Shown here: positions 2,693-56,389 of the stretch, piece by piece
Position numbering within the stretch: the first letter of the stretch is position 1
How the letters are laid out: every line of letters begins with the position of its first letter
Source: Eledone cirrhosa
Lineage: Eukaryota
DNA length: 64,000 nt
Direction: 5' to 3'
NCBI GenBank assembly: GCA_964016885.1
Contig: OZ024743.1
Location: 34,100,001-34,164,000, forward strand
Notes under the pieces: model-generated
What the model saw: only the letters and a program-made list of their open reading frames with translations
Told to the model about the DNA's origin: nothing
Database searches by the model: none
Position numbers and translations under genes: made by a program

Positions 2693-2736
2693 TACCACTG
2701 ATGATGTTGCAGATGTGCAACGAAAGAACTTTGATA
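2693..2736 (+). ncRNA. Minimal type-I hammerhead ribozyme (family B variant)
   Basis: UACCA-CUGAUGA-U-GUUGCA/gaug/UGCAAC-GAAAG-AA-CUU-UGAUA; one mismatch in stem I. Confidence 0.6.
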
Positions 2737-3230
2737 GACTATATATATATATATTTATATCTGTATTTTTAACCGTTGGTCAATCAATGATAAAACGTTG
2801 ATTGCCAAATAAATTAACTATGGAGATATAAAAGATACAGAAGCGAAAACCAACCAAACAGTGAGTGTGTTCTGTTATTATTTCTGGCAATATTATTACA
2901 ACAATATGACCCTCCCCAAGTATAACTCTCTCTCTCTCTCTCTCTCTCTCTCTCTCTCTCTCTCTCTCTCTCTCTCTCTCTATATATATATATATATATA
3001 TATATATATATATATATATATATATATATATATATATATATATATATATATATATATATATTGCTTCTGAATTTGTTTAGCAAGATTCTTTATCTGAAAT
3101 CGTGTGTTGAAACCGATATTGTTATACTTTGGGAGGGTCATGTTGCCAATAAGAACACAACACACACACAGAAAAAAAATGGCGTAGGACAGAACAAAGG
3201 AGAGGCACAGAAACAAAGAAAGGAATCCCC

Positions 3231-3275
3231 AGTCACTGAAGAGGTCACAGAGTGTGTGACGAAAGAACTATGATT
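3231..3275 (+). ncRNA. Minimal type-I hammerhead ribozyme (family B)
   Basis: AGUCA-CUGAAGA-G-GUCACA..UGUGAC-GAAAG-AA-CUA-UGAUU, in a (TA)n-flanked element spanning about 3061-3430. Confidence 0.75.
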
Positions 3276-51510: not shown

Positions 51511-54500
51511 CCCTAACGTCTTTAAAAAGGAGCGATATATAAGACTACTCATGGTACCTACAACTGAGACCGATTAAATTGCCGATACTTCCCACATTAA
51601 ATTTATCCTCTATAGTATAACTTAGAAGCAATAACAACAGCAGCAGCAACAGTGACTGTAGTAAGAGCAGTAGTGATATTATTATTAATATTAGTAATAA
51701 TAATTGTAACAGTAGTAGTAGTGAGGCACATTTTGTTGTTGTTGTTGTTGTTGCTGTTGCTGTTGCTGGTATTTTCTACTAGGTATTTATGGCATTGTTG
51801 CTGTTGTTGTTGTTATTGGGTAAAGTTGCTGTTAAGCCTTGCAATGATAACAACAGCAAAATGAACACGCCCCTGCTACACGCCATAGCAACCTTCCTGC
51901 AACTGCTGTCCTATGAATGCACAGGTACTTTTAGTTCCAGCCTGTGCAATAGTACTGTTGACCTTCCACCCACATTTTCTTTCTGCACCATGATCAGCAT
52001 CATCAAAGCCGCCACCAATAATTTTAGTAGAGTAAGCAATATTAATAAGTTGATCCTCGAGTGGTTATGGTAGTACAGTGATATGATACATAATCTTTCC
52101 GTATAGTACGTTCCAATGTCAGACTAGATGTAAAAGGTCACAGAAATGTGATATGGTTACATCAGTATCGCCTTGCAATATTAGATAACTTAAATTTCAA
52201 GACATGGGAGCCAGCTTCAAGAAAAGAGACACTTCCTAGAAAGTACGAAGCTCCTACAGAAAAGACAATTTCTGGACTAAGGACATCGACTATATCGGTA
52301 CTCATTGTATCTGCCCTGAAGATTTAAAAGGTAAATTTAACTCTGGAAGGATTGGAACGTGGATCGTAAAGGAATTTTCCTGATCGTCATCCAATTATGC
52401 CATACTCTACTGCTGCTAATTCTGTCAAATAGGACATGACGACAATAACTACACTGGAAACAACTCAAGACAGGTTTGTTTCTGTTAGATTAGTGTGATA
52501 CTTCATACAGACAGTGGACAGCATTTATACTGAAGCTGTATCAAAAATCTAGCTAGAGAAAGCTCATGTATCCCGAACAGCTACAATATGAAAGCCAATT
52601 CTTGCATTGGAGACATTTTCAAAATGTGGATTAGCTTCCGCAGCGAAAACTAGAGTCATGTGTGGACAGCTGTTTTGTTTCAGGCGGAATTCAAAAGCGT
52701 AATAACATTAAATACTTTACTTTTAATTATATATATATATATATATATATATATATATATATATATATATATATATATATATATATATATATATATATAT
52801 ATATACACTGGTAATAATGGCAATGACTTGAAACTGAAGGAGTAAGATTTCGAATGTAAACAAGATTTCGAATGTAAACAAGTGTTTGACATATACAAAG
52901 AATCAACAGTTTCTTACATTACTTCGGTCAAATTTAGAAAACAATTGTCGAAAACCACAAAATCTCAAAAGATTTTGTCAGGAATTCGAAAAAGGTGTTT
53001 AATTCTAGATATAAATGTGTCTACTTGCCTGTACTCAGGTGACTAAAGCAATTACAAATCAAACGCTTATAAAGCAATAATTATTATTTAATTTGATATG
53101 TATCTACTCAATTTCAAATATAAATAATTCTGTCGTAAAATCGACACATATCTGTACTACTTCGATCAGTTATCTCCCTTATCCTTGGATATCAGCTGAA
53201 TTACTATTAATGACAAAACATTCGCCACATATTTCGCAATTACAGAGTTGTTTTCGAATTGATGGATTCATTAACCTCTCGAATTTACATGCAAGACAGA
53301 CAAAAGTTTAAAGCGCCGAACTTTTAACCAAATCTCCCCGGCAAATTCAGGTTTAACAAGGTACACGTACCTTAAGAAATGCATCTGATATTACCATGCA
53401 TCTATGGAATCTGAAAATGAACAGCAGGTTTTAAAGGCCACCTTAAAACCAGTGACAGAGATGTATAGTATGGTTCCGTAATTCCTGATGGAGTCGTAGT
53501 AACGCTGTAATGACCTACGGTGTTTCTTAGGCATTTTAAAGCCTGGTGCAGCCCACCCCACAGGTCTAAACACAGTAGATGTCTTCCATAGAAGGATAGA
53601 ATGTGAGAAAGAGATATAGTGGAAGAATCGACCCCAGTACTAGACTGGTACTATTCTTTTATCGACCTCGAAAGAATGAAAGGCAAAGTTGACCTCGGCA
53701 GGATTTGAACTCAGAGAGCAGAGAGCCGGAACGAACACCACAAAACTTACTATGCGACATTCTAACAACTCTGCCAAATCTTCTATAAGCATTCTATAAA
53801 CATGCAAATGTGCATTCATACTCGCATGTACGCACACGTGCACTCATGCATGCTCATGCATGCATATATTTGTCGTTACTGCTTGGTGTTCTTTTCAAAA
53901 GATAATCGTTAAGTATATATATATAACGAAGGAAGTGTGGTAAGGAACCAGATGGACCATAACGCACCAGAGTACTCAATACTTAGGGTAGTAGAGTGGG
54001 TAATAGGAAAATGTTTAACCCCGACGGCAGATCAAGCCGTTTCGACGGCTATTTCTGGACTCATTTGGTCGCTTTATTCCTGGTGCCGTCGGGATTAAAC
54101 ATTTTCCTATATATATATATAAATATATATATATATATATATACATATATATATATCTTTCTTTATTCTATATTATATATATAGATAGATAGATAGATAC
54201 ATACATACATAGATGAATTTGGTCGTAAAAATAGAAAAGAAAAGGAATTGCAAAAGGTGATCATATTTGACAGCAAATCAACAGCTATACATACATATAT
54301 ATATATATCGCAGATACCAATCAAACTATTTGAGGCAGTTACAAAGGACTCAATGGTGTGAAAAGTTAATACATTTTCATCCAGAGTAAACACAAAAAGT
54401 TCAATAAAGTGTGGCACCAGGAATAAAGCGACCAAGTGTATGTGGCTATAGTGAGACCACAATATCGATATATACAAACATCGATATATATGCATAAATA

Positions 54501-56298
54501 CATAATTAGATAATATATACATACTTACATACACGCAAACACACATGGATGCATCCATCTATCCATACATAGATACATGCATGCATACATACATTCATAC
54601 ATAGATACATCCATGCATACATACATTCATACATAGATACATCCATGCATACATACATTCATACATACATACATACATATATATATATATATATATATAT
54701 ATATATATATATATATATATATATATATATATATATATATATATATATATATATATATACATGCATATATATATATAACATGCATTAGAATTCGTTATAC
54801 ACAACATAACGAATCGAGCTGTCGTAACATCAACGTCACAGCTTAGAAACTAATCTGTAACAAATTCAAGATAATTATCGCTTCCGGGGTCAGATATATA
54901 CACACACACACACACACACACACACACACACACACGCACATATATATATATATATATATATATATGCATATATATATATATATATATATATATATATATA
55001 TATATATATATATATATATATATATATATATGTGTGTGTGTGTAGAGAGAGAGAGAGAGAGAGAAATATAGGTTCTCATTGTTTGCCATGTGGTTTACAT
55101 ATGTTAATCTATAAGTCGTCTATATAGGAATATACAAATATGAGAGTTACTGATAAACATATAAAATACGATGAAAATAGGCGTTAATAAATAAATGCTA
55201 TTACTCCTCTTACCAGGACTCGTGGAAGAAGTATGAAGAAATCCGAATAGATTCTTCCCGGATGTCCTCGTGAAAAAAGAACGTAGCCGGCGAGATTGTG
55301 CTAGAAAGAACAACAACAACAACAACAACAAAAACAACAAAACAAACAAACAAACAAACAAACAAACATAAACCAAAAACAACAACAACAAAACAATTAG
55401 CAGGTATAACTACTATTAGAACTACAACGACAATAACCGCAACAACTACATTTGACCTAACGCAAAGAAAATGTAACGAGAATATATTTAAAACAAATAA
55501 ATAAAAATCTTTTAAAAAAATCAACAAAGCATCATCTCTTTCTAGATTGGCTTAATTGTGCGCAAATGAGGCAGATTATATGCAGCTAGAAGCTAAATCT
55601 GGATTCGTACTTATAAAACAGGCTTAATCTAAGTCAGCTGTCTAATCTGGCCAGACTATATATTACTATTTTACTACAGATGGAGTCGATCAATCTCTCC
55701 CACGTCATCATTATCAAGTTTATTGGCACCTGGGTAGTTGCCGTGTCTGACATTTCAAGTTTCGGGTTTCCTTAAATCTTTAAGTCAAACAAATTTACAG
55801 AAAGCTATTAAAACCACACTTTCTACTATTTCTGACGCCATTTGTTTAATCCTTTAGAGGTGAGTTTTTGAAAAATAATAGTTTTCTTTTAATTGAAAAT
55901 GGTTCATTTTGATCCAGTTAAGCTAGTAATACGTATTTTATATGTATATTTTTAAATATTTTCATGGATACTTTCATCTCAACAGTATTTTAAATTGGGG
56001 CCTCTCTATCCCAGCAGTATCCACACTGTTTAATATGATGAGCAACAAGAAATAACAAAAAACCAACTAGTTATTGCTAAATTATGTTAAATATTGGAAG
56101 GAGAATTCAATAGATTGCAACCCTTATGTATGGATCGATATGTCCCTACAGTATTGAAATGGTTAAGTTGTCCACTTTACACACACACACACACACACAC
56201 ACACACACACATATATATATATATATATATAAATATATATATGTGTGTGTGTAGAGGCGGAGTCCAACAGAAAGAGGATTTGCTTCGAAATCACTAGA

Positions 56299-56389
56299 CG
56301 TATCTGAGGAACTTGCGAATCCAGAGTCAGGTTCGATCCACAAACAGATCGCACCTCGAGCTGTTCGCCGGAGAAACATTTGTAATACG
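56299..56389 (+). ncRNA. Hammerhead with extended stem II (family R)
   Basis: CGUAU-CUGAGGA-..GCGAA..AGGU.CGAUC..GAUCG.ACCU..UUCGC..-GAAAC-AUUU-GUA-AUACG; the base of stem II is imperfect. Confidence 0.65.

Follow-up and report, generated by a model that had tools for sequence, protein, structure and literature searches.

Hammerhead cores in the window

The window, a stretch of 64,000 nucleotides of Eledone cirrhosa DNA, carries 20 type-I hammerhead cores distributed over both strands between positions 3236 and 56774. Both strands were scanned with a structural descriptor requiring stem I of at least 4 bp, CUGANGA, stem II, GAAA, stem III of at most 16 nt, and UH. The cores belong to 11 families and 15 insertions, five of which are head-to-head pairs, and a (TA)5+ tract lies within 250 bp of all 20, compared with 45% of random window positions. 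The features are listed below with strand (a dot where none is given); family letters are our own naming and were not matched to those of the initial annotation.

2622–2925 (+): family A2 pLTR fragment; degenerate core 2698 with stem I mismatch, outside the 20
3061–3428 (+): family A pLTR fragment; core 3236; an inverted piece of tail precedes it
6877–7055 (.): family C fold-back; core 6935(−), UG at cleavage site, outside the 20
7162–7400 (.): family B (Hydra) fold-back; cores 7229(−), 7269(+); ~62-nt tail on right arm
7441–7651 (−): family H fragment; core 7588; short fold-back at CAGT motif; no partner ORF found
7652–7784 (.): family C fold-back; core 7726(+), UG at cleavage site, outside the 20
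8774–9340 (.): family A full fold-back; cores 8965(−), 9094(+); ~60-nt tail on right arm only
15669–15830 (−): family D1 fragment; core 15764; no partner ORF found
15874–16237 (−): family D2 fragment (young Hydra); core 15965; listed copies 99–100% alike
16312–16462 (.): family M (Hydra) fragment; variant hammerhead, 3′ half, cut in loop II
17520–17660 (.): family G old fold-back; degenerate cores 17593(−), 17602(+)
20186–20399 (.): family B subfamily fold-back; cores 20316(−), 20336(+); tail on left arm
20432–20670 (−): family A pLTR fragment; core 20605
20687–21319 (−): family I; core 20986; 1.5 repeats of a non-coding tandem retrozyme (unit ~421 bp)
21698–21848 (−): family M fragment
22332–22611 (+): family E fragment; core 22511; inverted tail
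29095–29574 (.): family E fold-back; cores 29198(−), 29332(+); end of closed 2.0-kb non-coding unit
43411–43540 (+): degenerate core 43429; old family whose stem II is long
44263–44695 (.): family F (Hydra) fold-back; cores 44452(−), 44596(+); tail on left arm
44720–44851 (−): family M fragment
45501–45930, bounds approximate (−): family J fragment; core 45733; no partner ORF found
53926–54107 (.): family M fold-back fragment
56252–56436 (+): family R (likely Hydra) fragment; core 56304; 62-nt stem II domain
56678–56780 (−): family C fragment; core 56774, 14-nt helix III; no partner ORF found
58192–58391 (.): family M fold-back
59152–59346 (.): family M fold-back
60896–61110 (.): family G old fold-back; degenerate core 60976(−)

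The family J tail is split by a SINE piece (about 45526–45600), and elsewhere in the genome family A2 was found 3′ of a GIY-YIG ORF in two loci (L034 and L054).

The initial annotation had described about 17 intact cores in at least eight families and had proposed a comparison with shuffled sequence. That comparison bears the cores out: 200 local dinucleotide shuffles of the window gave a mean of 0.1 and a maximum of two cores against the 20 observed, a tighter descriptor gave 18 against 0.04, and five altered cores used as control descriptors matched 0, 0, 0, 0 and 1 times. Outside the window the counts were 56 versus 0.4 in random loci and 25 versus 0.6 in the flanks. Two features outside the descriptor are also present, a helix III that is a perfect palindrome in 17 of the 24 multi-copy clusters (~2.5 expected, the clusters being partly interdependent) and a stem II that folds better than shuffles (z < −1.5) in 18/24; among 30 related cores, compensatory changes occur at 5 of 13 predicted pairs. 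Helix III of family A is imperfect. The Rfam check proposed in the same annotation went the other way, since at the gathering threshold no hammerhead was reported in the window, only a tRNA-like match, and at E ≤ 5 there was none among the 150 listed of 281 matches; Rfam miRNA matches were rejected as fold-back artefacts. Sub-threshold Rfam models are what would speak for chance matches in AT-rich repeat DNA. The shuffle controls refute that explanation, to which we give practically no credence, and the palindromes and covariation were not demanded by the search.

Judged by their sequence, the cores are minimal type-I hammerheads with a CUGANGA/GAAA/UH core, palindromic helix III and covarying stems; self-cleavage at NUH is a further property of that ribozyme class. 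They share with the minimal hammerheads of Penelope-like elements (PLEs; Cervera and de la Pena 2014, PMC4209133) the short helix I, the extra base between positions 9 and 10.1, the palindromic helix III and a mostly single, dispersed occurrence with opposite-strand pairs 100–700 bp apart. The core is less uniform than initially described: stem I, reported as complementary in every case, is mismatched at its second pair in core 2698, and cores 6935 and 7726 carry UG at the cleavage site.

Coding and non-coding sources of the short elements

Twelve of the 20 cores trace to coding PLEs, namely the Hydra-clade families B, D2, F and likely R, together with family A. The short elements are mostly fragments of the pLTRs of coding PLEs, and we regard their identity as hammerhead-bearing PLE terminal repeats as nearly certain. 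The absence of coding capacity noted in the initial annotation is true locally but not of these 12 cores, whose sources elsewhere in the genome are coding, and the partner search that it called for returned RT/GIY-YIG ORFs contiguous with families A, B, D2, F and M. Its reading of non-autonomous or truncated, PLE-mobilised and TA-targeting units holds, as both kinds were found (12/20 cores from coding PLEs, 4/20 in non-coding units); its “radiation” of independent non-coding families turns out to consist mainly of pLTR remnants left by coding elements.

Families B, D2, F and M adjoin Hydra-type ORFs upstream without a TA break and show the Hydra-type (TA)n insertion, hammerhead, inverted copy and tail. 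Family B lies 3′ of an ORF in 18 loci, at least one of these being another element's ORF, and D2 has an intact ORF of 894 aa (L355). The N-terminal RT motifs are RWR and SDKT in B and RWK and ADKT in D2; the Hydra-type families have a CxCx5C linker and a C-terminal endonuclease (EN) without CCHH and with CxxC and CxH. B, D2 and M share one branch of an RT tree (quick method, midpoint-rooted, no named references included), and likeness to Hydra-1_Obim was judged by eye. Family R likely belongs to the same clade, with a Hydra-type EN upstream in 2/29 loci and a tail that runs into an ORF start in L218 and L335; its continuity check failed. No partner ORF was found in the genome loci searched for families C, D1, H, J or G, the first four of which account for 4/20 cores. 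When the genome was searched with the family F arm, 0 candidates came back, which does not indicate rarity, since an upstream query returned 2,507.

The basic phenomenon is already known in the literature (PMC4209133; Hydra-1_Obim in the PMC8557442 supplement), TA-targeting, hammerhead-bearing Hydra PLEs having been published for Octopus. Hydra-clade PLEs, among them the Octopus bimaculoides element Hydra-1_Obim (Craig et al. 2021, PMC8557442), likewise have the RWK and DKT motifs, a C-terminal GIY-YIG that lacks CCHH, the CxCx5C linker, CxxC and CxH, the (TA)n target and a canonical hammerhead near the 3′ end. The present genome differs in having at least five Hydra families (B, D2, F, M and likely R) versus the one Octopus family listed there, 3′ UTRs of up to 1.1–1.3 kb, tails of 60–100 nt instead of 30–40, short pLTR fragments that far outnumber ORF copies, and a family M core that is mostly C3-A8.

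Family A lies 3′ of an ORF comprising an RT, a CxxxxCxxC linker and a C-terminal CCHH GIY-YIG; it stands behind an ORF in 11 loci, one being another element's ORF. Neptune/Nematis PLEs are closest, sharing the RT, a CX2-5CxxC linker, the C-terminal GIY-YIG with CCHH and a fold nearest to telomerase. Those PLEs are characterized by no insertion between RT motifs A and B′, whereas the family A RT has one of ~70 residues, and the A-to-B′ spacing is 133–136 aa in 6/6 relatives versus 62–64 in Neptune-like and Hydra proteins. Identity to Neptune-like proteins is 20–33%, and the family forms a separate long branch in the midpoint-rooted quick tree without named references. Assignment to Naiad/Chlamys PLEs was rejected, the EN being C-terminal, not N-terminal, and a hammerhead being present. 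We did not find this clade in print, and it may extend PLE classification.

Four further cores lie in closed non-coding units, the 421-bp tandem retrozyme (family I) and a 2.0-kb element (family E). Family I is tandem in 13/19 loci, with an inverted copy upstream in 12/19, and one array fills all 10 kb of L070 with 15 intact cores and a longest open stretch of 65 aa. By sequence it is a non-LTR retrozyme, a class of non-coding tandem 150–450 bp units with a type-I hammerhead in each; described examples (PMC7229834; bioRxiv 10.64898/2026.07.22.740005) resemble both family I and the L053 unit in being 300–420-bp non-coding tandems with one hammerhead per unit. Family E closes on itself at ~2.0 kb as a partial tandem. 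In 3/3 units neither strand has an open stretch longer than 100 aa, and the one unit tested gave no PLE tblastn match. At ~2.0 kb versus the 150–450 bp of the described non-LTR retrozymes it was rejected as a retrozyme and is better called a non-autonomous PLE; an apparent link to the Hydra ORF in L218 proved to be a chimera with an R tail. Both E and I are inserted with PLE hallmarks, and such non-coding units are likely moved by PLE enzymes. The retrozymes here display these hallmarks directly, as a TA target and an upstream inverted truncated copy, which gives structural support to a link previously argued from co-occurrence and phylogeny.

Ends of the copies and fold-back geometry

The 5′ ends of the copies pile up at family-specific edges (counts leave out loci from each family's own search, as well as families D1 and E). 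In family M, 55 of 102 arms begin in one 16-nt window, and pile-ups were also seen in C (33/40, part of the peak at −3 being due to an indel in the reference copy), H (9/19), F (7/15) and A (8/35); edges are weak in B (5/11), D2 (2/8) and R (9/29 top matches). Ends within 4 nt of the cleavage site number only four in M, one each in C and F, and none in H or A, and ribozyme cleavage was accordingly rejected as what sets the ends of dispersed copies. The idea that the M, H and C edges mark a splice acceptor was likewise rejected, because the copies retain the AG and have no common upstream exon. The 3′ ends are bimodal in B (33 + 14 of 52) and D2 (16 + 12 of 36); these counts leave out E and F, where TA in the references swamped them.

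Promoter-like motifs accompany several edges, counted over copies that within one family are not independent. TATAAAAG lies 31 nt before the H edge in 3/3 long copies (background 1.4% per window), and the edges themselves coincide with a CAGT motif in H, CAGTC in C and TTAGTC in M. CCAAT occurs 45–90 nt upstream of the edge in 22/32 M copies, and 10/16 R copies have a CCAAT (background 6.7%). A strict TATA was seen solely in H and in 1/5 distinct long C copies, and not in M, F, R, A or E (five of the seven families tested). All three D1 starts lie upstream of the D1 TATA-like motif, and a cap-derived extra G was not detected at genomic edges.

An inverted partner was found upstream of 34/81 cores and downstream of 1/81, and a tandem partner on the same strand within 3 kb of 0/81. 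Fold-back junctions differed in 9/10 cases in M; in H one junction recurs in many copies, in a search biased toward that junction. MITE identity was rejected, given that the arms are unequal, with the tail on one only, and the junctions mostly unique. When 300 nt of upstream context was included, self-pairing TA tracts inflated the folding result, which has meaning for hairpin copies alone. In three contig runs aligned to a family B element, depth summed to ~9 × 10^5 over the core versus 10^3–2 × 10^4 over the ORF, and loose ends run into TA at both 3′ ends; the direction agrees, but this depth does not measure copy number and the runs reveal no starts.

Origin, activity and number of the copies

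The 5′ pile-ups and promoter-like motifs suggest cDNA synthesis from the tail to the RNA start, followed by fold-back. We consider it probable that the short elements are pLTRs of PLEs, together with PLE-moved non-coding units in (TA)n, made as tail-to-RNA-start cDNAs that often fold back; that the 5′ edge is the transcription start inside the pLTR is a view we hold with slightly better than even confidence. The PLE enzyme nicks AT-rich DNA and initiates cDNA synthesis from two internal positions that flank the tail; ribozyme cleavage is not needed for PLE reverse transcription in vitro (PMC11167929). Priming would use either a transcript's first pLTR or solo-pLTR transcripts that retain the promoter, and would yield a start-to-tail cDNA of 100–300 nt resembling retroviral strong-stop DNA; the 3′ end of this cDNA would snap back and be copied into a hairpin, and the ribozymes are predicted to require a partner via the palindromic helix III. 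Comparable features are described for Penelope of Drosophila virilis and Adineta vaga and for Poseidon of Anolis (PMC2377424, PMC3846280, PMC11167929): a pLTR-internal promoter, which is putative here, TATA and Inr-like motifs, palindromes in head-to-head arrangement, a tail that is optional, reverse transcription starting at two sites, and solo pLTRs. Solo pLTRs are few in Adineta and ascribed to recombination or deletion, whereas here they dominate and mostly have their own junctions. We did not find the fixed 5′-end geometry in print, and no fixed 5′ edges are reported in PMC4209133.

The short units could instead be ordinary 5′-truncated copies, with pile-ups marking sites where RNA or DNA structure makes the RT stall or jump, rather than transcription starts. 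Truncation and inversion at the 5′ end are standard for PLEs (PMC8557442, section 6), the B and C edges fall at the ribozyme 5′ boundary and the M edge in loop II, and most families tested lack a strict TATA. Yet edges at −70, −60, −44, −5 and +45 relative to C3 match no single structural element and follow, rather than precede, the copying of helices; few copies extend beyond the edge (in M, 10/102 start upstream of the modal window's neighbourhood), and the H edge fits TATA plus initiator spacing; we find this reading rather unlikely. For the same head-to-head geometry, in pLTRs with TATA and Inr-like motifs, it was proposed that a bidirectional pLTR promoter supplies an antisense template on which self-priming occurs (Arkhipova 2013; PMC3846280), which would replace sense-template snap-back; here the tail can be carried by either arm when the longer side of the H junction is taken as reference. 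In vitro, however, the PLE system copies sense RNA from internal tail sites (PMC11167929), and in H, C, M and R the edges agree with promoter-like motifs on the sense strand; an antisense origin appears fairly unlikely, and it would touch the fold-back step only, leaving element identity unaffected.

Retrozyme-like amplification, in which the short units are independent non-autonomous families whose cleavage and ligation yield RNA circles, or master hairpins amplified as units, does apply to family I and to the 311-bp array in L053, and a short C-family tandem exists in L139; palindromic helix III and covariation also show fold selection in the source elements. As a general account it is quite unlikely: ends do not fall at NUH, no tandem partner lies within 3 kb of the 81 dispersed cores, junctions are mostly unique, and over half of the cores continue into coding ORFs elsewhere.

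Family M, the most frequent among the loci examined, has C3-A8 in 21 of 25 full copies, with U3-A8 in one, U3-G8 in one and other pairs in two, and in most copies lacks the C3-G8 (or U3-A8) pair of a type-I hammerhead; that it has succeeded despite the mismatch in its catalytic core suggests that spread does not require cleavage. Most cores are predicted to be unable to self-cut and are unlikely to be working ribozymes, because 34 of the 81 follow an antisense copy of themselves, tandem partners within 3 kb are lacking throughout, and helix III is predicted to be dimer-dependent. With no partner for dispersed copies, and with hairpin copies pairing with their own antisense strand, ribozymes that work are probably restricted to retrozyme arrays and tandem elements.

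One core occurs per 7–11 kb in random samples and per 16 kb in the flanks. Next to these the window is a hotspot: the density of one per 4 kb given initially is true as a local peak, and its genome-wide extrapolation was 2–5 times too high. Extrapolation from the samples gives an estimated pool of roughly 2–4 × 10^5 cores, and the “very large unannotated ribozyme pool” of that annotation stands as to number, though most of it would not be working ribozymes. The axolotl genome is far larger. It holds up to 120,000 retrozyme copies (PMC7229834; bioRxiv 10.64898/2026.07.22.740005), and counts in PMC4209133 are ~2,000–9,000 per genome, our estimate resting on a different descriptor. We found no comparable scale in print, although Lunse et al. 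(2017) may include octopus counts.

Taken jointly, and only tentatively, these data would be read as PLEs mass-producing strong-stop-like snap-back cDNA from the tail to the capped start, which left the 2–4 × 10^5 cores; the 5′ edges would map PLE promoters, the hairpins would be a genome-wide source of perfect dsRNA, and family A would be an undescribed deep clade with a C-terminal CCHH endonuclease and an RT whose ~70-residue fingers insertion sits at the telomerase IFD position. With hundreds of thousands of insertion products, a young D2 with an intact ORF, and the matched non-coding clients E and I, this genome makes the formation of PLE inverted ends and tails, and the function of PLE hammerheads, directly testable. 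In genome annotation, short hairpins of this kind may be filed as MITEs, SINEs or unknown. Pieces matching the window families cover 13% of the window, against about 6% in random DNA.

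Hammerhead cores in the window and across the genome

A type-I hammerhead descriptor (CUGANGA, GAAA, UH and stems I-III) recovered 20 cores in the window against a mean of 0.1 over 200 shuffles, a control proposed by the initial annotation; a tighter descriptor found 18 against 0.04, and deliberately altered cores gave 0-1. The motifs are real and well above chance. They represent 15 insertions from 11 families (lettered here), in agreement with the roughly 17 intact cores and at least eight families first claimed, and each of them has a (TA)5+ tract within 250 bp, as the proposed (TA)n setting implied. 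An Rfam search of the window missed these cores.

Hammerhead features of the window
Intact cores: families A and B, 4 each; E, 3; F, 2; C, D1, D2, H, I, J and R, 1 each
Additional degenerate cores: 2698, 6935, 7726, 17593, 17602, 43429, 60976
Family M: 16312-16462 and five more pieces, each with the ribozyme 3' half only; genomic loci L191-L215; 6-bp helix III, GUC site

The fold is supported by three features that the search did not demand: helix III is palindromic in 17 of 24 multi-copy clusters, where about 2.5 would be expected, stem II is stable in 18 of the 24, and compensatory changes occur at 5 of 13 pairs across 30 related cores.

Forty 10-kb samples spaced along the chromosomes held 56 cores (0.4 when shuffled). 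For a genome of 3.0 Gb, in which the window lies at G000:C4:34,100,001-34,164,000, this extrapolates to ~420,000 cores (bootstrap 200,000-700,000) or, once two tandem arrays are set aside, to 284,000 (150,000-434,000). Of the 36 cores outside arrays, 31 have TA within 250 bp, versus 28% of random positions. The 101 cores from region and samples group into 33 clusters. With 25 cores in 400 kb, the 200-kb flanks are sparser, which makes the window a hotspot: the pool foreseen by the initial annotation is still estimated to be large, but its rate of one per 4 kb is local. Lunse 2017 reportedly described about 150,000 variants, drawn from many genomes. Published counts per genome include ~2,000-9,000 for minimal hammerheads (PMC4209133) and, for retrozymes, ~5,000 in mussel and up to 120,000 in axolotl (PMC7229834), a rough comparison with our estimates because descriptors differ.

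Source elements

The window motifs are explained by known elements. Twelve of the 20 cores trace to coding Penelope-like elements (PLEs) and four to non-coding units; for the remaining four (C, D1, H, J), genome searches gave no link to a coding element. The earlier view of non-autonomous or truncated PLE units is partly borne out, with both kinds present, but the lack of coding capacity is only local: most families could be lengthened by genome searches, and A, B, D2, F and M continue into ORFs, E and I being the non-coding units. Among named proteins, the closest come from Octopus (71% identity to an O. vulgaris RT, with further O. bimaculoides matches).

Coding elements
Family A: L025:1561-2963(-), L358:6419-7768(+) and protein relatives P0001-P0033; RT insertion, C-terminal CCHH GIY-YIG
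Family D2: L355:3913-6594 (G000:C2:291,936,000 region); intact 894-aa ORF, Hydra type

The ORFs of B, D2, F and M bear the diagnostics of the Hydra clade as set out in PMC8557442 (CxCx5C, CxxC and CxH, without CCHH, together with RWK-like and DKT motifs in B and D2), and run to the core uninterrupted by TA; family R is likely also Hydra, on weaker evidence. Family D2 is young: the 41 matches listed are 99-100% alike. Within the thumb region its intact ORF has a long insert of low complexity.

Family A continues into an ORF that combines an RT with a CxxxxCxxC linker and a GIY-YIG domain of the CCHH type. Its RT has an insertion of ~70 aa between motifs A and B', which are 133-136 residues apart versus 62-64 in the others compared. 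It shares 20-33% identity with Neptune-like proteins, forms a separate long branch in a quick tree built without named references, and its profile matched 1,538 50%-clusters at E<=1e-30, relatives being widespread. The predicted structure of one relative (pLDDT 81.6) is closest to telomerases. Five family A motifs are absent from the Craig supplement text, whose long runs are abridged (PMC8557442). Family A may belong to a paraphyletic Neptune, or it may not have been described before. The genome also contains a Neptune-like PLE family (L082:672-1301(-), L052), with no link to any window core.

Family E is a closed unit: a terminal repeat (pLTR) and its short 3' tail, a 1.75-kb body, then a second pLTR and tail. 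Open stretches above 100 aa are absent from all three units, and the one unit tested had no PLE match. Family I is a ~421-bp tandem unit (13 of 19 loci), with an inverted copy upstream in 12 of 19; its array occupies the whole 10 kb of L070. A second retrozyme (311-bp unit, L053) has the same layout inside a TA tract. The octamer ATGCAAAT, which families I and J carry ~80-95 nt upstream of the core (window 20687-21319, 45501-45930; L070, L336, L348), is reminiscent of newt satellite 2 with its snRNA-type promoter. Inter-family chimeras, one family's tail joined to another's ORF or pLTR (L218, L098, L143, L335), suggest frequent template switching or nested insertion.

Ends, orientation and a candidate mechanism

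The identity, target, ends and orientation of the elements are shown by the copies. There are two 3' end positions, 60-100 nt apart, matching the pair of RT start sites found in vitro on either side of the PLE tail (PMC11167929). Among 81 dispersed cores, an inverted partner lies upstream of 34 and downstream of one, and none has a same-strand partner within 3 kb; in hairpin copies the antisense arm precedes, whichever strand is read. With loci from each family's own search excluded, 5' ends within one 16-nt window number 55/102 (M), 33/40 (C), 9/19 (H), 7/15 (F), 5/11 (B), 8/35 (A) and 2/8 (D2), and those at the cleavage site are rare (M 4; C, B and F 1 each; A and H 0).

In published work, the pLTR contains a promoter (PMC2377424, PMC3846280), RT starts internally, and insertion in vitro does not require cleavage (PMC11167929). 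We propose that the edge at which genomic copies begin would mark where transcription starts; cDNA primed at the first pLTR of the transcript, or on solo-pLTR transcripts, would span start to tail and could then snap back into a hairpin. All three long copies of family H have a TATA box 31 nt before the edge, and the family H edge carries CAGT; the edge motif in C and M is CAGTC or TTAGTC; CCAAT boxes occur in M (22/32 copies) and R (10/16), and the family A edge lies just ahead of a YY1-like motif. Against edges as transcription starts, strict TATA is found in one of five distinct long family C copies and in none of families M, F, R, A and E, the edges of B, D2 and R are weak, and the starts seen in D1 do not fit; structural stalling could account for edges instead, a possibility we consider rather unlikely. 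Nine of ten family M fold-back junctions (head-to-head inverted pairs) are distinct, which argues for fresh fold-back at every insertion; that this step reflects antisense self-priming is improbable, and amplification of units through circles, true for family I, is very doubtful as the explanation. The start-to-tail mechanism for the end geometry is testable.

Folding predictions place the A15.1-U16.1 pairing probability at or below 0.09 in all 20 cores. Helix III is thus predicted to be unstable in monomers, so that ribozyme activity would need a partner, and neither dispersed nor hairpin copies are predicted to have one. Family M, the commonest among the loci examined, has its edge inside loop II, and most copies therefore lack the 5' core; full copies carry C3-A8 in 21 of 25 (U3-A8 and U3-G8 in single copies). 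This is consistent with dispersed copies lacking ribozyme activity.

Published systems and other window features

Several components have published precedents: minimal hammerheads with palindromic helix III, single dispersed copies and opposite-strand pairs (PMC4209133); the Hydra clade, including the (TA)n-targeting, hammerhead-bearing Hydra-1_Obim of O. bimaculoides (PMC8557442, supplement); head-to-head palindromes, TATA and Inr motifs and solo pLTRs (PMC3846280); and PLE pLTRs as the origin of retrozymes, argued in a 2026 preprint (bioRxiv 10.64898/2026.07.22.740005). Active Penelope families are also listed in a repeat annotation of O. vulgaris from 2026, in whose available text the word 'ribozyme' is absent (PMC13282606). 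A literature search that left most subscription journals and Repbase outside its reach found no octopus hammerhead census, start-to-tail cDNA model or C-terminal-EN PLE clade with a long fingers insertion. What is new is the scale, the end geometry and possibly one PLE clade (family A).

Other TA-embedded pieces (fold-backs or fragments) that lack an intact core
16777-16925
44986-45359 (CUGACGA at 45140/45204)
49790-50040 (CUGAGGA at 49947)
30784-30880

These coreless pieces are likely other PLE ends. In a further TA-embedded fold-back (50207-50460), Rfam scores the 72-nt loop as a tRNA at 36.4 bits and ARAGORN finds no tRNA; as other copies end where this piece begins, it may be part of that family. 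A very abundant SINE-like repeat, which resembles an octopod SINE, has ~20 window copies (e.g. 68-257, 18721-18910, 27549-27742, 46931-47122), often inserted at AT-rich sites, PLE tails included. Another SINE-like element, with a tRNA head (25085-25200), immediately follows a TA tract.

Minisatellites of the window
14011-14213, 23 bp
23228-23595, 93 bp
26723-27540, ~26 bp (GGT-rich)
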